IMG/VR virus record: IMGVR_UViG_3300046534_001374
Location: 32,001-96,000 of that record
Source: a virus
Length of the DNA: 64,000 nt
Direction: 5' to 3' (one strand)
Shown one piece after another: positions 1,951 to 42,776 of this stretch. The notes under the pieces are model-generated. The model searched no databases. It was not told the origin of the DNA and saw nothing but the letters and a program-made list of their open reading frames with translations. Each line of letters starts with the position of its first letter. Positions within the stretch are counted from its first letter, which is position 1. Both the position numbers and the translations under genes were made by a program.

Positions 1951-2649
1951 TTATTTTGGGGAGTTTTGTTTCTCCAAATATGCACCATAAAGTTTATACA
2001 AATTGGGGCTTCTACCCTTTTCTGTCGAAACCAGACCGACAACTACTTGTCGATCATTTTGAATTTGTGTAAGTTTCTTCCCAGAATCACCACTAACAAA
2101 TCGTGTATCTTTAGTAGTGGACAGTCTAATTATATTTCCGCTCGTAACAGTCACATAATAACCCCGCCAAGGTCTGTCGGCAAATCTCTGTGCGGTTGTC
2201 GGGGTGTCGGGTAGCGCCTTCCCTATGGGCATTACTGAGTGGATTGATGTGTCCAGAGGTTCGTCGAAGGTTAGTATAGCTAGATCATAGCCTAAATCTT
2301 CCTTTGTAATAATATGCCTATAAGTGGTCACACCACCCCTACCGTCGAATCTAACACGTTGATTGGTTTTGATCGGCCAATGAGCGACGTGTAAAGATTG
2401 TTTAGGATTTACTAAAACCCCACCCAACTGAACTATATCTCCGGTAGTGTCAATATCGGGGATAAGTTCGGATTCGGTTGGAGCCTTGCTTTCTTTAAAA
2501 AGTTTATATAAACCAGCACCAATACCCAAACTAACAACACCTAATACACTGTATTTTGTTTTTTGTTCCGTGGTTAAAGGTTCTGAGGGACTACTCCCAC
2601 ACGAAGCCAACATTAATAAACACATAGCGTAAGAAAGTAATCTTTTCAT
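1951..2649 (-). CDS. trypsin-like (S1) serine protease lipoprotein
   Basis: Start re-assigned to 2649 (TAAATA-N5-ATG); lipobox LASC; triad motifs VAHW, DLAIL, GDSG; VVGLVS. Confidence 0.75.
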   Translation of the reverse strand: MKRLLSYAMCLLMLASCGSSPSEPLTTEQKTKYSVLGVVSLGIGAGLYKLFKESKAPTESELIPDIDTTGDIVQLGGVLVNPKQSLHVAHWPIKTNQRVRFDGRGGVTTYRHIITKEDLGYDLAILTFDEPLDTSIHSVMPIGKALPDTPTTAQRFADRPWRGYYVTVTSGNIIRLSTTKDTRFVSGDSGKKLTQIQNDRQVVVGLVSTEKGRSPNLYKLYGAYLEKQNSPK

Positions 2650-2769
2650 AATTGTATTTATGTGTGTTAATCCGAAATTTCTCATTTTTCTAGATATGCA
2701 ACATCCAGTTCTTTTTCATGGAATACGCCGTTGAGGTCTTGGTATTCTACATTTAAACCTGAATACCCG

Positions 2770-2865
2770 TATAAAGTTTCTGATAAAACTATCGCAAACT
2801 GGTGTAAAAGTTATGAACTCAAAAAGCCAACCAGAGGTTTTTGGGTCAAAGAAAATAATTCGTAG
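2770..2865 (+). pseudogene. C-terminal HTH remnant of a homing endonuclease
   Basis: YKVSDKTIANWCKSYELKKPTRGFW*, resembling the VSDxxxxKWCK...PxRGYW tail of phage HNH endonucleases; no ATG nearby. Confidence 0.5.
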
Positions 2866-2867
2866 TC

Positions 2868-2975
2868 GGTGCGCCCAATCAGATTCGAACTGATAACCTA
2901 GCCTTTATCCACGTAACACACTAAGATCAGTATGTTACGAAAGAGAAGCTTACTCTACCCTTGAGTTATAAGCGC
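2868..2975 (-). tRNA. tRNA (Ile-like, or Lys) with 34-nt hairpin insertion in the anticodon loop
   Basis: Acceptor GCGCTTA/TGGGCGC-A-CC, D arm ACTC/GAGT, anticodon stem AGCTT/AGGCT, T arm ATCAG-TTCGAAT-CTGAT; loop 41 nt instead of 7. Confidence 0.75.
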
Positions 2976-2982
2976 ATATTAT

Positions 2983-3073
2983 TGGCACAAGCAATAGGAT
3001 TCGAACCTACATAGTGTATTTCCAGTTACGGTATTTATTCACACTGCTTAGAAGGTAGGACCGATATACTTGC
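2983..3073 (-). tRNA. non-canonical tRNA-Arg(TCT), truncated D region with enlarged variable region
   Basis: GCAAGTA/TGCTTGT-G-CCA, loop CT-TCT-AA, T arm GTAGG-TTCGAAT-CCTAT; only 8 nt where the D arm should be. Confidence 0.7.
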
Positions 3074-3079
3074 TTAATT

Positions 3080-3120
3080 TGGTATTTTACAGGTCTACCT
3101 GCTTCTGACTATACCTAGCC
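3080..3120 (-). ncRNA. 41-nt pseudoknot-like mini-RNA, copy 1
   Basis: GGCTAGGTATAGTCAGAAGCAGGTAGACCTGTAAAATACCA; 38/41 identical to 7828-7868. Confidence 0.6.
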
Positions 3121-3128
3121 AATTTTTG

Positions 3129-3204
3129 ATGCGAGAGTTGGAATCGAACCAACGACACAACTATCTTCTCGATAGTTTGCTCTATCCAATTGAGCTATCT
3201 CGCA
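3129..3204 (-). ncRNA. tRNA-like RNA without a valid anticodon loop
   Basis: TGCGAGA/TCTCGCA acceptor, canonical D and T arms; anticodon arm is a 7-bp stem with GAGAA loop; no encoded CCA. Confidence 0.7.
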
Positions 3205-3210
3205 AACTGT

Positions 3211-3408
3211 TTACTCGTCCCAATCCGACCAAGCTGTGATGATACAAGTGGGCGAAACGACACCCAATGTATGGATAATCTCCCCTTTGTATGACTCTTC
3301 AAAATCACATTGGAATAATCGATATACATTCACTGCCCAACTGAAGGGGAAGAGGATGTAAAACACGATTATTAGGGTGGTGAGGATGGTTTTATATGTG
3401 GTGTCCAT
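3211..3408 (-). CDS. small membrane protein
   Basis: Hydrophobic segments; TTGATT-N16-TATAAT-N6-ATG. Confidence 0.7.
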   Translation of the reverse strand: MDTTYKTILTTLIIVFYILFPFSWAVNVYRLFQCDFEESYKGEIIHTLGVVSPTCIITAWSDWDE

Positions 3409-3445
3409 AATGGTATTATACTTTATTTTCTTAATTAATCAAGGA

Positions 3446-3739
3446 TTATTTGAAATATTTTACTGCTCGCTTTTCGAGGGCGTCATACGCCTCCAAAATA
3501 GGTTTCTTTCGTGATTCCAAATCCGGCTTTTCTTCTGAACGAGATTCGCCCAAAGCAAACTTGGCTCGATTAACCGCAATCGCGGTTCCAATTTTACGAT
3601 CAAAGCGATCACTCGAATCTGGATTCACCAAGGAATAACCAAATCCAAATTTACCATCTTGGTTTACCACTACCGCAACCCCAGTTGGGTTGTTATTTGA
3701 ATCTCGGATGAACGTCTTTAATACTGTATTTTCTGACAT
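3446..3739 (-). CDS. hypothetical phage protein
   Basis: TGGACA-N17-TAGAAT-N6-ATG. Confidence 0.7.
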   Translation of the reverse strand: MSENTVLKTFIRDSNNNPTGVAVVVNQDGKFGFGYSLVNPDSSDRFDRKIGTAIAVNRAKFALGESRSEEKPDLESRKKPILEAYDALEKRAVKYFK

Positions 3740-7870: not shown

Positions 7871-8043
7871 TGGTGTCCCATGTGGGGATTCGAACCCTAC
7901 TCACATTATATCCTTTGTCAATTACTAATGCATTTTCTTTGACACTCTATTTCCTGTGGGCCGATACTTCATCTTACGACTTCTTCGGGCACACTTCTTA
8001 CACTACGTTTAAGTAGTAGCTCTAGCCATTGAGCTAATGGGAC
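7871..8043 (-). ncRNA. 173-nt tRNA-like RNA with about 100 nt of extra domains
   Basis: GTCCCAT/ATGGGAC-A-CCA, GCTC/GAGC D arm, GGG-TTCGAAT-CCC T arm, several hairpins between. Confidence 0.7.
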
Positions 8044-8113: not shown

Positions 8114-8206
8114 TGGAGCGGAGGAACCGATTCGAACGGCTATCTGTTCTCAGTTGTATAAGGTTAGGCTTGGATTCGCCCTGTGCTGCCATTACACCAC
8201 CTCCGC
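8114..8206 (-). tRNA. atypical tRNA-Gly(TCC)
   Basis: GCGGAGG/CCTCCGC-T-CCA (U73, Gly-like), 8-nt loop GAATCCAA, 24-nt variable region. Confidence 0.65.
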
Positions 8207-9246: not shown

Positions 9247-9324
9247 TTAACACACCCGCAGGGAATTACTTCTCTTGCAAAAGAGAGATCTTCCTAAATT
9301 TATGTTTGACATAATGTGTTTCAT
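9247..9324 (-). CDS. putative attenuator leader peptide MKHIMSNINLGRSLFCKRSNSLRVC
   Basis: 25-codon ORF between a promoter and a terminator; its 3' end GGGTGT is complementary to ACACCC at the terminator base. Confidence 0.65.
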   Translation of the reverse strand: MKHIMSNINLGRSLFCKRSNSLRVC

Positions 9325-29500: not shown

Positions 29501-30032
29501 ATGCGAACCCTTCGTGTGGAAACAACCACTTACCTCTACTATAGATCTGGAAAAACCCCCTGTTTGGAAAAAACTTAATTTTAGTTTCACCAACCCCAAG
29601 CTACTACAAAAGATTGTGGGGTGTGGTAACTGTGAATTGGTGTTTGATGATACCCCCGATTCTTGTTTTTTGAAGGAAGCTAATTGTAATTCATATATCG
29701 GGTATGTTGAGGAAACTAACGAAGATTCTGATATGATTATCAGAACTGCTTCCAATTGCAATAATAATACAGAACTCTATTATTCCGCCCAAAATGATTT
29801 TATATGGACAAACGACGTAGTCAATACTACGGACGTGGTAAATCCTGTTTCAGAGGTTTACGTTGAAGCAGAGCAGCCTTGGGCTAATTACCTAAACAAA
29901 GACAAAGCCGTTGTTCGGGTAAAGGAAACTGATACCCATCTCAAAACTAAAGACGAACTGGGTGTGTTTGTTCCTAAAAACATCGGCGTGAATAAGCTCC
30001 AGTGTTTTGGCCAAGAAAATGAATTAGTATAA
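26577..30032 (+). CDS. large Cys-rich virion protein with choice-of-anchor K-like insert
   Basis: 1151 aa; TAATTA-N5-GTG; WG.P..F.IG.L.Y.N..F.I.ET.N..AD motif string. Confidence 0.6.
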   Translation: MDTNGNITLPVNSGDPLFDLLNCYIDAFGEEIPNSVYLDPFTKDEFAFELFTKTGKYLGEDLFFINSEETEPVTTLTNEISTGNNIFNPFQNLGNGANASFPIASSDIGATSGSSLATSDIVWQFVDGELEGAWYKKFDEEFSADPICLKLQVGTFELRYPYGDRGTLDDEDGWSGRGLDNCQRSVYLGQEDQITQEALEELYWNEPAELSTTPSIALNDTTLIDDGAYADKNIFYADQIQVKTDRDADTGEFAWLYDFDHTELPIICGLNQIYWPLFRYDDETREFPFKISNEQVEDIALTSINLNKTMCGAVAGLTPETSDQFYKKSGFCGSGTEGAWLKGCDVEPLGEDIYPPAIPEELCQGLTFFLEDDEVFVTGSCVIPPVVYIPDEGCGDPLFTGTSVIGFENAVYEGTPEIKIRKNIFEWGVPVSGGKNKIEFEPVSFSEVSFDQSFKIGDLSYLNEIVQGGSYVDTVDVVLSLSIGNNIQEFTFPFDITETTNNSSNPIENADTITITKPATQTVFTLYGVAYTLEIFFKEGLTEGGFAKETELFANEQATATTELFAKLTTIESQEQTNSYTYKVFSFEPKVGFDYSLDVTGCVLTVVGDETEGIAREENIFQIETDGTDFISFYEDGVKKSELLAPLMILCYRNKVRSLTGASRQTGLHMMAPTGGDTHFFWEFPDSDITDVINGYDHDDYCEYGKLDSYKSIVDAKLGEETNEWKKCNCKAVYHSPIGNSFEGVAGFDDYKEYSDIIFSDSGVEPFSFSTWVGPDGKDYRTSDYFAVFKYSGREPDVGYGIGYWETLSGKSMKLERGNSYVYRRASFDGCDDNKPPCLVVQNCHCYDNCNDSVCKPQWTKLVQEPDGSWVDTGEPSDMILEAGQFYEYEKQGSINYTLHKEDGTSYDRTTPTSSFSMNVPFKESSPFWASSPTVGSLNIGLGPLESSDYLLTTQPDPSEIIIDNDNYIKIVRNKCEPFVWKQPLTSTIDLEKPPVWKKLNFSFTNPKLLQKIVGCGNCELVFDDTPDSCFLKEANCNSYIGYVEETNEDSDMIIRTASNCNNNTELYYSAQNDFIWTNDVVNTTDVVNPVSEVYVEAEQPWANYLNKDKAVVRVKETDTHLKTKDELGVFVPKNIGVNKLQCFGQENELV

Positions 30033-34206: not shown

Positions 34207-35823
34207 TTAGTAAACATAGAAGGGTGTGCTCATACCTCCTTCTGATTTTGTCTTCTTAAGCCAATCGGAGAGTTCTTTTCTCTCCTCAAGACCTTGTGCC
34301 AAAAGATCATTACCGTTGATTTGCAATCCGCCAATAGTCGATCCGCCAAATTTGGTTAATGTATTACCCATAATAATTTTGGTCAATGCTGTAGAATAAT
34401 CTTGAACCCAAGTTTCGGAAATCATTTGTGATATAGATCTCTCTAAGTTAATACCTAACAGGTAACACCCATTTCGGTAAATCCCGCCACTTCTATTTTT
34501 AAAGATCTTCAGTCTCTGGGTAGTGGGGTTAAAATCAAAACTAGTTTTATTACCACCACCAAATCGCTCACGCATCATCTCCATCATCGACATGCTTAGT
34601 TCATGCGTTACTATGTCGTATCCGTATCTGTTGAAATTTCTACCACCAGAGCCATTATACCCGAAAGTTTGTTGTGCTATGATATACTCAAAGCTGAATA
34701 ACCCAATTCCGAAATTGTTCGAAGACATAGGGGCAACCTCAAATACACCAGATATTTTTCGACTCTCGCCTCTGTCGTGATCTTGGTAAATATCAAAAGG
34801 CTCAACTCTAGTATCATACACCAAGGTTGTTACGTTTTTATTAAACTCTACATTTGCCGAAATGGGGTTGGCCGTATCTGGGACTGTATTATTATCGGTA
34901 ACCAATTTGAAACCAGTATTCTTGTCGATATCAAAAGTCCCTACTAATCCTTCGGGTAATGCGAAGTCGTTAACAAATTCAATACTAGCAGTAATATAAC
35001 CACAAGTGTCTAGCTTGCGATCTAAGACGTTGAAGGTTCCCCCTTTGCCTGTATTCAATATTATGGTCTGTAACCCCTCCACGGTGCAGTTAGGGACACT
35101 TGTTACCACAAGGTGTGTTGCTAATGATGGGTCGAAATCGGGATATAACGTTTCATCCACACCCCACCATTCCCAAGCAGAAATACACGGATCTTTATCC
35201 TCCCAACTAATCGGATAGAATTCGGCGATACCGTTTTCAACTTTGACCCAAACATCCAGAACAGGGGAAAGGGATTCTTGAGGAGGATAAGACTCTAAAG
35301 GGGTTATCGTTACCGAGTTAGCATCACAAACTTCAAAAGACCAAGGGTCGGTTGGTTCATAAGTTATTGCAATCGACCCCGTAGTTTCTGTGGCCGAAAC
35401 CGTGAGGCCAGAATCAATCAGCGAGACGCCATTTCCGATAAGGGTAGTCTCTACGGTTTCTCCCGAAACATATTCAGTCTCGATAACATCGCCTGTAAGC
35501 GCAGGGTTTGCGTCTACTCCTGTCTGGCATTGACAGTTGGTGACTATTTCATCCAATCTAATTGAACAACCATCATCTAATGCATCGTCGCAAAATAAAA
35601 CATATTCACGATCATAACCAGCATACCTTGAATATAAATCAATTGCCTCGTCTATGTTATTTGCAATTGCTTCATCTGTAGCATTAATCTTGGACAAAGG
35701 TGCCCCGAGACGGATTTTGATTCTATTAGCAAGGTCTTCGTAAGACTTGATGGAAGAATTCCTATAAGTGGAACCACTCCAGTTATCTGGTAGAACGTTA
35801 TTGGTTGTAATTTCAGAAGCCAT
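34207..35823 (-). CDS. gp13: neck protein gp13 with large insertion
   Basis: RLGAP..IDEAIDLY N-terminus; WVQDYSTAL..G..LTKF..GG..ING C-terminus. Confidence 0.85.
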   Translation of the reverse strand: MASEITTNNVLPDNWSGSTYRNSSIKSYEDLANRIKIRLGAPLSKINATDEAIANNIDEAIDLYSRYAGYDREYVLFCDDALDDGCSIRLDEIVTNCQCQTGVDANPALTGDVIETEYVSGETVETTLIGNGVSLIDSGLTVSATETTGSIAITYEPTDPWSFEVCDANSVTITPLESYPPQESLSPVLDVWVKVENGIAEFYPISWEDKDPCISAWEWWGVDETLYPDFDPSLATHLVVTSVPNCTVEGLQTIILNTGKGGTFNVLDRKLDTCGYITASIEFVNDFALPEGLVGTFDIDKNTGFKLVTDNNTVPDTANPISANVEFNKNVTTLVYDTRVEPFDIYQDHDRGESRKISGVFEVAPMSSNNFGIGLFSFEYIIAQQTFGYNGSGGRNFNRYGYDIVTHELSMSMMEMMRERFGGGNKTSFDFNPTTQRLKIFKNRSGGIYRNGCYLLGINLERSISQMISETWVQDYSTALTKIIMGNTLTKFGGSTIGGLQINGNDLLAQGLEERKELSDWLKKTKSEGGMSTPFYVY

Positions 35824-40764: not shown

Positions 40765-41535
40765 TTAAAAACTAGCATAAGCGGGTGGGGTTTTACGGGT
40801 TCTTTCGTTATACTCTCTCTCCATTTCCTCAAAATCCTCAAATTTCTTAACAATAAATTTGACGATTTCGGATCTCACGATATCGTCGGAGGTTAATTGG
40901 AAGAAATTAATGCCCTTATCCACACATTCGGGTGTATCGAAAATTTGTTTGGCTGTCTCTAGGCCCGACCCTTTAATGTCGGACTGTTGGCTATCGCCAC
41001 ACATGATCAATTTCGAACCCTTACCGATACGAGTCATAAGGGTTTTCACTTCATCTATACTGAAATTTTGGATTTCATCAGCAATTACATAATGATCTAC
41101 CCAATTTTGGCCTCTTAGGAAATTTATAGGAGCCGCCTTCAACGGAAGTCCAGACCTAGACCCTACCTCAACTATCTCTTCTACCTTAGAGTCTAGGATA
41201 GCCTTATAATTGGAAAACTTGGCATTTTCGTCACCAGCTAAATATCCCATAGATTTAGACGCACTTTCAATGACCGTTCGTAGATATAAAATATCTTTAA
41301 AATCTTGTTCTTGGTATGCTTTCAGTGCTGCATAGACCGATAGATAACTTTTCCCTACTCCGGCTGGGCCGTCAATTATTACAATTTTAACAGTGTCGTC
41401 CAACATAGCATGTAAAATTTCTCGTTGGTTTTTCGAAAACTTAAAATCCCTTTTATTGAAGGCTATCTTTGTTACCGATGAATTTTTAGATAAAGCTTGA
41501 TTAATATCCGTTACGGATAAGTTATTATTTGACAT
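40765..41535 (-). CDS. phoH: PhoH-like ATPase
   Basis: GPAGVGKS, FLRG, DEIQN, TRIG, GD..QSD, DIVRS. Confidence 0.95.
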   Translation of the reverse strand: MSNNNLSVTDINQALSKNSSVTKIAFNKRDFKFSKNQREILHAMLDDTVKIVIIDGPAGVGKSYLSVYAALKAYQEQDFKDILYLRTVIESASKSMGYLAGDENAKFSNYKAILDSKVEEIVEVGSRSGLPLKAAPINFLRGQNWVDHYVIADEIQNFSIDEVKTLMTRIGKGSKLIMCGDSQQSDIKGSGLETAKQIFDTPECVDKGINFFQLTSDDIVRSEIVKFIVKKFEDFEEMEREYNERTRKTPPAYASF

Positions 41536-41627: not shown

Positions 41628-42776
41628 ATGAAGCAAAAATATACTAAAGAAGTGATAAAATCTATAGCCGGAAAATACACATCGAAAAAGGAATTTATAG
41701 CTAATGATCCTAATGTTTATGGATATATGCGGCGTAAAGGTGAAGATTTTTCTAAAGAAGCTTGTGCTCATATGACACAGCTTAGAAGGAAACATACTGA
41801 CGAATCATTGAAAGATATAGCCAAAGAATTTATGTCCCGAACAGAATTACAAAGGGGTGATGCCTCGGCTTACAGTTGTATTAGAAAAAAAGGTAAACAA
41901 TTCATGAACGAGGCATGTGAACATATGATTCAAGGTAGATTTTCTATAGCACAACTAATGTGTAAAAAGATATTTGAAAATATACTTGATAGTGTTTGTG
42001 TGTATGATACCCGAAAAGTTATTACTCCCTATGAAATTGATATATGGTTTAAAGAGTTTAATTTGGCAATAGAGTATAATGGAAAATTTTGGCATGCCAA
42101 AGAATGTGCAATAAGAAGAGATGCTATTAAAAAGAAAATTTGTGAAGATAGAGGTATACACTTAATAACCATATACGAAGGGGTCAAAGATTACGAGACC
42201 GAAGTTAGGCATAAAATAATAGAAATATTACCACTTATTAATAATATTACCAAAAAACAAATAACTACACAAAATGTTTTAGATGTCGATTGTTCGACAA
42301 TATGGGATGATATACTGAAGAGTAATAGTATTGACGAAATCAATAAGAAAATAAAAAAATGTAAAAACATAAAAGAATTCAAAGAAAAACATTATACCAA
42401 TTATAAATATATCCACAAAAGTGGAAATACAGATATGTTAGACTGTATCAGAGAAAAAGAAAATGAAAATTTGAGTGATGTAGAACTTATGCGGAAATGT
42501 TCAGAAATAACCCATTATGCTAAATTTATAACAGATCATAAAAATTTATACACAATTACCCACAGACGGGGATTATTAGATTCTGTAGCCAAAAATATGA
42601 TTCTCACCAATAGAAGATATAGATTTCATAAACATGAAGATATTATTAATCTGGCGGGAGAATATAAAAATAAGTCTTCTATTGAAAAGGGTGACTGTGC
42701 TTTGTTTAAAGAAATTAACAAAAGAGAAGATATTTCTTGGAGTGACATCTTATTTTTAGCGAAAAGAAAATTCTAA
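41628..42776 (+). CDS. free-standing homing endonuclease (PD-(D/E)xK, Hef-like)
   Basis: YEIDIW..LAIEYNGKFWH; repeated AC.HM modules; very AT-rich. Confidence 0.8.
   Translation: MKQKYTKEVIKSIAGKYTSKKEFIANDPNVYGYMRRKGEDFSKEACAHMTQLRRKHTDESLKDIAKEFMSRTELQRGDASAYSCIRKKGKQFMNEACEHMIQGRFSIAQLMCKKIFENILDSVCVYDTRKVITPYEIDIWFKEFNLAIEYNGKFWHAKECAIRRDAIKKKICEDRGIHLITIYEGVKDYETEVRHKIIEILPLINNITKKQITTQNVLDVDCSTIWDDILKSNSIDEINKKIKKCKNIKEFKEKHYTNYKYIHKSGNTDMLDCIREKENENLSDVELMRKCSEITHYAKFITDHKNLYTITHRRGLLDSVAKNMILTNRRYRFHKHEDIINLAGEYKNKSSIEKGDCALFKEINKREDISWSDILFLAKRKF

Follow-up and report, generated by a model that had tools for sequence, protein, structure and literature searches.

The window, a stretch of 64,000 nt (bases 32001–96000 of a 139.6-kb IMG/VR virus record), belongs to a phage whose family-B DNA polymerase is ∼28% identical, and no higher, to its counterparts in T4-like Vibrio phages. 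The phage carries ∼30 tRNA genes, arranged on the minus strand in three blocks. The gene considered here (the candidate) lies in the third block, in which it is the sole Arg tRNA, and comprises 91 nt including an encoded CCA (Table 1). It is flanked on the 5′ side by a 41-nt hairpin element and on the 3′ side by a tRNA-Ile(GAT) gene with a 34-nt insert. The block is headed by a leader ORF of 25 codons, MKHIMSNINLGRSLFCKRSNSLRVC, in which AGA occurs at codons 12 and 18, in agreement with the first-pass annotation, which had counted two AGA codons in the leader peptide. The residues of the leader mostly match the tRNAs encoded downstream (Lys, Ile, Met, Ser, Asn, Leu, Phe and Arg). In the long ORFs of the phage, AGA is the commonest Arg codon (46%), and AGG accounts for 19%. 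The phage also encodes a canonical tRNA-Arg(UCU), at genome positions 29763–29839.

The candidate is base-for-base identical in six more assemblies obtained from different samples (L005 and L007–L011) and is therefore no assembly artefact. Near and distant BLAST searches with positions 2600–3500 against GenBank phages gave no matches. The same was true of exact-pattern scans of IMG/VR (T arm plus acceptor, or the neighbouring tRNA) and of metagenome scans with a protein profile of the neighbouring gene or a tRNA-Ser/spacer pattern, and no near relatives of the phage were found among GenBank phages or in IMG/VR. Searches with neighbouring proteins recovered the same phage and one relative only, a 5.2-kb ENA contig (L003), which is the only diverged relative found and whose neighbouring proteins are 67–71% identical. 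L003 keeps the tRNA-Ser, the 41-nt element and the next tRNA, and the ∼95-nt unit containing the candidate is missing from the syntenic site; a canonical tRNA-Arg(UCU) is located 81 nt beyond (1102–1175). Since the six assemblies are identical and L003 is devoid of the gene, close relatives offer no covariation.

The 41-nt element is found at ∼900–945 in L003. Its inner stem displays compensatory changes (GCAGG/CCTGT versus GTGGG/CCCGC in L003), the outer stem, GGTAT/ATACC, is unchanged, and ARAGORN run at a low threshold takes the element for the 5′ half of a tRNA. In the tRNA-Ile gene, the insert is a hairpin placed between U33 and G34. Its L003 homologue (947–1020) has the anticodon CAT and no insert, and the anticodon stem covaries (AGCTT/AGGCT versus ATCTT/AGGAT). 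A class I-sized tRNA gene called Ser(AGA) has a counterpart in L003 (821–897) called Ser(TGA); the loops, CGAGAAG in the window and CGTGAAG in L003, have G33 in place of the universal U33 in both phages. The candidate's block contains two further aberrant tRNA-like genes. One, of 173 nt, has a normal acceptor, D arm and T arm and ∼95 nt at the variable position; the other, of 93 nt, has an 8-nt anticodon loop (GAATCCAA) and a 24-nt variable region. Finally, a 244-aa ORF, 70% identical to L003 protein P0002 and without a Pfam or PHROG match, displays a lipoprotein-type signal (…LASCGSS) and a GDSGK motif and is possibly a secreted trypsin-like protease.

Table 1. Segments of the candidate, listed 5′ to 3′, and features around it (window coordinates)
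Feature	Positions	Strand	Remarks
Candidate, 91 nt with CCA	3073..2983	-	
Acceptor 5′ strand GCAAGUA (tRNA positions 1–7)	3067..3073	-	7/7 pairs with 2993–2987; G1·U72 wobble
Linker U8-A9-U10, acceptor stem to D-stem 3′ strand	3064..3066	-	T8 and A9 invariant in 24/24, outside the search pattern
CGGU, proposed D-stem 3′ strand (canonical 22–25), continuing into the anticodon stem	3060..3063	-	pairs with ACCG 3032–3029
Anticodon arm, stem CCUAC/GCAGU, loop CUUCUAA	3043..3059	-	anticodon UCU 3052–3050; read directly from the sequence
Putative extra helix, 5′ strand GUG	3040..3042	-	complementary to CAC or UAC within 3018–3014
A/U-rich linker AAUAAAU, extra helix to D-stem 5′ strand	3033..3039	-	equivalent to CGUUAAN in compact members
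ACCG, proposed relocated D-stem 5′ strand (canonical 10–13)	3029..3032	-	pairs with CGGU 3063–3060
Proposed relocated D-loop UAACUGGAAA	3019..3028	-	equivalents of A14/A15, G18 G19 and A20
Putative extra helix, 3′ strand UACAC	3014..3018	-	complementary to 5′ strand GUG
Junction UAU ahead of the T stem, variable-loop-like	3011..3013	-	T-stem-adjacent U invariant (T63), outside the pattern; UAU also in L026 and L028
T arm GUAGG, loop UUCGAAU, CCUAU	2994..3010	-	5-bp stem, consensus T loop; stem covaries in the family
Acceptor 3′ strand UGCUUGU, discriminator G73, encoded CCA	2983..2993	-	read from the sequence
41-nt hairpin element	3120..3080	-	directly 5′ of the candidate
tRNA-Ile(GAT)	2975..2870	-	34-nt insert
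tRNA called Ser(AGA)	3128–3204	-	class I-sized
244-aa ORF	1951–2685	-	
173-nt tRNA-like gene	7871–8043	-	
93-nt tRNA-like gene	8114–8206	-	
Leader ORF	9324..9247	-	25 codons

Anatomy of the candidate

Canonical tRNA features are readily recognized in the candidate: a 7-bp acceptor, a 5-bp T stem with the UUCGAAU loop, a 7-nt anticodon loop with U33, the discriminator and CCA. The anticodon loop is the same as that of the tRNA-Arg(UCU) of L003. The stem below it forms C-G, U-A and C-G pairs, with C·U outermost and A·C at the fourth pair. The D-arm hairpin that would be found between positions 9 and 26 is missing, and just UAU-CGGU separates the acceptor from the anticodon stem. The anticodon hairpin is followed by a 32-nt insert which holds ACCG and UAACUGGAAA. 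What the first-pass annotation had described in the sequence is borne out on each point: the acceptor GCAAGTA is followed by only TAT-CGGT ahead of the CTTCTAA arm, AGTGTG (3045–3040) and TACACT (3018–3013) flank ACCG and TAACTGG (3028–3022), and the orphan CGGT is complementary to ACCG. The 5′ strand of the extra helix can be extended to U3043, or to AGUGUG at a cost to the anticodon stem.

The candidate and the canonical tRNA-Arg(UCU) of the same phage are identical at 24 of 27 positions in the TAGG…CCA stretch, which covers the 3′ part of the T arm and the acceptor 3′ end. The two genes differ in a compensatory manner at acceptor pairs 4-69, 5-68 and 6-67.

As the first-pass annotation had anticipated, the gene escapes standard scanners. 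ARAGORN makes no call at the candidate with default settings, and the Rfam tRNA model RF00005 scores it at 22.1 bits, below the gathering threshold of 29, with the acceptor and T arm as the only aligned parts. The minimum free energy (MFE) fold predicted from this sequence alone (z = -1.46) is not informative; in this fold, CCUAC pairs with the T-stem strand.

Phage genes with the same order of parts

A permissive BLAST search with the 91 nt against GenBank phages yielded unannotated stretches of Vibrio phages, with 71% of the length covered. These stretches have the same order of parts in a different sequence, namely, TAT-CCTA, anticodon arm, TAGG-G-TAATTGGAA and T arm. The architecture was also searched for as a pattern (CTTCTAA, gap, TAAYTGGA, gap, GTTCGAA), the spacing of which shuts out normal tRNAs. 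A narrower first scan gave two loci only; the broad scan added 25 IMG/VR contigs beyond two already collected. Further BLAST searches and the pattern gathered loci from Streptomyces phage Francob, a Kuravirus, Vequintavirinae and T5-like Klebsiella phages. Among the pattern-matched loci, 26 out of 27 have a fully paired acceptor (7/7) exactly 19 nt ahead of the loop and a T stem of 4–5 pairs. The search pattern specified neither the acceptor pairing nor the T-stem pairing. The resulting set of GenBank phage and IMG/VR loci consists of 23 distinct sequences and, with the candidate, 24 (alignment A2). We define the family by alignments A2 and A3 together with a covariance model, R1, as no published definition was found.

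The compact form of the gene is present in 266 GenBank phage records, Felixounaviruses among them, and in a sample of 40 of these records it is mostly either not annotated or labelled ‘tRNA-OTHER’. Named members include Klebsiella phage Roth39 (L056, PQ657804.1 26000–50000; gene at 41154–41235), Escherichia phage wV8 (27567–27644) and Vibrio phage F100 (∼129216–129301). The Roth39 gene is annotated as ‘tRNA-OTHER’ and is directly followed by an HNH endonuclease gene, an arrangement also seen in Vibrio phage F100 and Salmonella phage SSBI34; a second ‘tRNA-OTHER’ annotation in Roth39 is located at 42539–42623. T5 (L014 272–345; AY587007 ∼41351–41424) and BF23 (L015 272–345, inside ‘rnaX’) contain a 74-nt tRNA-like element with a G1·U72 acceptor stem, a T arm and the strand-plus-loop motif CCGTAACTGG. 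The element lacks a 7-nt anticodon loop, scores ∼30 bits with R1 and may be an anticodon-less derivative of the rewired scaffold.

When the acceptor, the long-range D helix, the anticodon stem and the T stem are counted over the 24 sequences, 94% of the cells are standard pairs, compared with 62% in column shuffles (none of 500 as high as 94%) and 35–46% when the partners are slid by 1–3 columns. The acceptor helix covaries at all seven pairs, and the T stem covaries as well. In the long-range D helix, every one of the 24 sequences has C-G as the first pair. Pairs 2 and 3 are also formed in all 24 sequences, by four pair types in the former (UA 15, AU 4, GC 3, CG 2) and by five in the latter (CG 16, GC 4, UA 2, AU 1, UG 1). 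The fourth pair is formed in 6/24 only. In the candidate, CGGU:ACCG gives 4/4 pairs (C-G, G-C, G-C and U-A). The comparison thus supports the proposal of the first-pass annotation that the orphan CGGT and the distant ACCG together rebuild the D stem: 23 other sequences have the same layout, and the helix covaries. The covariance model of phage homologues that the annotation had called for gives the candidate 58.1 bits.

Several positions outside the search pattern are invariant, namely, U8, A9, the first D pair, one linker A (position 40 of the candidate) and the U before the T stem. Combined with the D-loop AA, the invariant U8, A9 and pre-T-stem U fit the tertiary contacts U8-A14 and A15-U48, from which we infer that these contacts may be retained. 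The spacing from the acceptor to CUUCUAA is exactly 12 nt (UAU + 4 + 5) in the candidate and in every member with a full acceptor. The D-loop motif TAAYTGGA is kept throughout the family, also in members found by BLAST (L012, L013, L019–L022), with TAATGGA in L018. The search pattern itself prescribed the anticodon loop, the D-loop motif and the T loop, so that their invariance among pattern-derived members is partly a matter of ascertainment.

R1 was built from the 23 other family sequences, with the candidate left out, and gives it 58.1 bits (E = 8.5e-14), so that the resemblance is beyond chance. Elsewhere in the genome, the best ordinary tRNA reaches 33.1 bits and the canonical tRNA-Arg(UCU) 23.6 bits. 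The candidate is at most 68% identical to any collected member. Judging from the sequence comparisons, it almost certainly belongs to the rewired tRNA-Arg(UCU) family, as a divergent member.

Two readings dispense with a rewired fold. The candidate could be a tRNA with the ordinary order of parts interrupted by an insert, in which case GUGUG/UACAC would be the anticodon stem, with a 14-nt insert ahead of a CUGGAAA loop. Alternatively, it could be the 3′ half of a tRNA(GGA) with a 62-nt intron, the 5′ half being the upstream 41-nt element; indeed, ARAGORN with -ps90 reports such a tRNA-Ser(gga) at genome positions 34983–35118, and the neighbouring Ile gene does have a 34-nt insert in its anticodon loop. 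However, the acceptor stem of the intron version has one mismatch and three G·U pairs, and its supposed 5′ half is a conserved stand-alone element, present in L003 without any 3′ half. Furthermore, region 8–29 is left without a D stem in these readings, whereas the family alignment and R1 account for each segment and make an intron unnecessary. We consider an insert or intron very improbable. A scrambled pseudogene, in which TCGGTCCTAC would have arisen by duplication of part of the T loop and stem (in the canonical copy, TCGAGTCCTAT), was rejected, as the family alignment reads this segment as UAU, D strand and anticodon stem.

The family fold is less stable in the candidate than in the other members: its predicted energy of -6.8 kcal/mol, compared with -13 to -24 kcal/mol for the others, is the weakest of the 24, and the distance to its own MFE, 11.4 kcal/mol, is the largest. 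Moreover, the candidate alone of the 24 is unpaired (A·C) at the fourth anticodon-stem pair, so that the inner four pairs are not all formed, and it alone has a C in the D-loop where other members have a U. Such features would be expected of a decaying, non-functional rewired copy that was acquired by the tRNA cluster, is redundant with the canonical tRNA-Arg(UCU) of the same genome and is drifting; the absence of the gene from L003 and the aberrant state of adjacent tRNAs, such as the Ile gene with its insert, point in the same direction. Yet all family-defining elements are intact, with a D helix that is better paired than in most members, and the fully paired acceptor, T arm, G73, CCA, UCU loop, U8 and A9 are all present. 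The R1 score is 58 bits, the changes in the acceptor are compensatory rather than random, the sequence is identical in seven assemblies, and the low G+C content of the phage's tRNAs could account for the weak helices. On balance, decay is unlikely, though the chance of it is appreciable.

Extra helix, predicted fold and decoding

In the compact, 79-nt members, the D helix encloses the anticodon arm and the secondary structure is nested. Longer members have an added helix, the strands of which lie just after the anticodon stem and 2–3 nt before the T stem: GGACGU:AUGUCC in L026 and L028, GUCGU:GUGAC in L023 and L045, CCUU:AAGG in L033, GCCA:UGGC in L017 and UGC:GCA in the Vibrio phages. At the equivalent place in the candidate, GUG can pair with CAC, or UGUG with UACA. 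Taken alone, this helix of 3–4 bp is no better than in shuffled sequences, and its position and the analogy with the longer members argue for it. Because the added helix crosses the D helix, the longer members, with the candidate as a probable case, would form a true pseudoknot. The pseudoknot suggested by the first-pass annotation thus gains support from the other long members, in which the crossing helix recurs with differing sequences. In topology, the extra helix is the counterpart of the stem in a class II variable arm whose ‘loop’ holds the D strand and the D-loop.

In a normal tRNA, strand 22–25 leads into the anticodon stem and position 22 adjoins U8, A14 and A21, whereas the end of the D-loop adjoins position 48, which leads into the T stem. 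With canonical geometry, entry into the D helix at position 22 from U8-A9-U10 and exit from the D-loop into the T stem mean that short linkers suffice. In the proposed fold, U8-A9-U10 would be followed by the D-stem 3′ strand CGGU, running straight on into the anticodon arm. Beyond the anticodon arm, a 7-nt linker would bridge positions 43 and 10 and lead to ACCG as the D-stem 5′ strand and then to the D-loop UAACUGGAAA, which would together pair back across that arm. The short extra helix (GUG:CAC/UAC) would be placed at the site of the class II variable arm, crossing the D helix. Stacking of the D helix on the anticodon stem would be preserved, and the D-loop GG could still make contact with the T loop, so that the L shape would be regained. 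The RNA would be excised from the transcript of the tRNA operon, charged by the host ArgRS and used to read AGA.

ArgRS of the E. coli type recognizes A20, C35, U36/G36 and A/G73 as identity elements. The corresponding positions of the candidate are an A after the GG of the proposed relocated D-loop (A20), C35, U36 and G73. The T5-like Klebsiella phage Roth39 encodes 25 canonical tRNAs, including Arg(ACG), and no canonical Arg(UCU), so that the rewired gene is its only UCU tRNA.

A tRNA-shaped RNA might also serve without decoding, either as a decoy or sponge for tRNA nucleases or modification enzymes or as an element in the processing or regulation of the tRNA operon. Phage tRNA clusters do hold stable non-tRNA RNAs, such as ‘rnaX’ of BF23 and the adjacent 41-nt element, T5 and BF23 have a related element without an anticodon loop, and tRNA-cleaving defences are widespread (PMC10264068, PMC11555353, PMC12445682). 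By contrast, the candidate has a flawless tRNA-Arg(UCU) anticodon loop and retains CCA, the discriminator and the ArgRS identity positions, and Roth39 has no other UCU tRNA; an invariant anticodon would not be needed in a decoy. We therefore hold a non-decoding role to be quite improbable. Collectively, the sequence data suggest that the candidate is probably an AGA-reading tRNA-Arg(UCU) with a circularly permuted D/anticodon domain, from a widespread and hardly annotated phage family. That it is a working AGA-decoding tRNA appears probable to much the same degree.

Why such a layout would be selected can be framed in terms of immunity. Phage tRNAs escape anticodon nucleases via loop mutations (PMC10264068) and neutralize retron and PARIS defences (PMC11555353, PMC11464382), Septu cleaves the variable loop of tRNA-Tyr (PMC13096335) and P2 OLD cuts several tRNAs, Arg included (PMC12445682). 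Immune evasion would be a plausible reason for the design. A fuller scenario, which is tentative and on present evidence rather unlikely, is that selection favours the layout rather than tolerating it, a working rewired Arg tRNA being invisible to tRNA nucleases of the host or of rival phages, or to the phage's own host-tRNA-destroying activity. AGA decoding would then continue during infection, and canonical and nuclease-proof UCU tRNAs would both be kept, under a codon-sensing attenuator.

Literature and comparison with known tRNAs

Full-text literature, with subscription journals outside the scope of the search, yielded no description of a relocated D strand or a pseudoknotted core in a phage or bacterial tRNA, and no experiments on any family member were found. 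The candidate is very probably a new, divergent and pseudoknotted member of a non-cloverleaf tRNA-Arg(UCU) family that was not found in the literature searched. To our knowledge, the cloverleaf is regarded as universal outside mitochondria. If the proposed fold is right, a chain with a different topology can also arrive at the L shape in bacterial translation, and the universality of the cloverleaf would have to be revised. The family would also explain ‘missing’ AGA tRNAs in the tRNA sets of phages such as Roth39, reveal what tRNAscan-type finders and GenBank annotation overlook and provide a natural scaffold for orthogonal tRNAs. A testable hypothesis is that phages alter tRNA architecture, beyond the bases of the anticodon loop (PMC10264068), against tRNA-targeting immunity. 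A viral candidate RNA, listed without a name in PMC10690425, overlaps in some cases with predictions of tRNA-Arg.

Canonical tRNA-Arg(UCU) (E. coli argU type, RF00005) and the candidate share the 7-bp acceptor with G1·U72, the CUUCUAA loop, the GG-A of the D-loop, the T arm, G73 and CCA. They differ in that the D-stem 5′ strand and D-loop of the candidate are located 3′ of the anticodon arm and a 32-nt segment takes the place of the 4–5-nt variable loop. With the rewired phage members, the candidate shares the segment lengths up to the D-loop (7-3-4-5-7-5 nt), the C-G first D pair, U8, A9 and TAAYTGGA. Only L026 and L028 exceed its length of 91 nt (with CCA), and it has a crossing helix that is missing in most members, which are compact (79 nt). 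In contrast to L012, L020 and L021, it has no adjacent HNH endonuclease gene.

The D-armless mitochondrial tRNAs, that is, metazoan mt-tRNA-Ser(AGY) and the minimal tRNAs of nematodes and mites (PMC2797822, PMC11571959), resemble the candidate in lacking a D hairpin at the usual place and in defeating standard finders. In those tRNAs, however, the D arm is lost, a short loop is found instead, and adapted mitochondrial partners are needed. In the candidate, by contrast, the D stem and D-loop appear to be relocated rather than lost, and the RNA exceeds a normal tRNA in length. Class II tRNAs (Leu, Ser and bacterial Tyr) likewise have a helix between the anticodon stem and the T stem. Their arm is a closed hairpin and their D arm is normal, whereas the ‘loop’ of the candidate's helix would bear the D strand and the D-loop, giving a pseudoknot.

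Circularly permuted tRNA genes occur in the red alga Cyanidioschyzon merolae, in which the transcript is circularized and re-cut to give an ordinary cloverleaf. The permuted order of tRNA parts in the gene is common to this system and the candidate. In the candidate, however, permutation is confined to the D/anticodon domain and the acceptor ends keep their usual position, and the mature RNA itself would therefore be non-cloverleaf.
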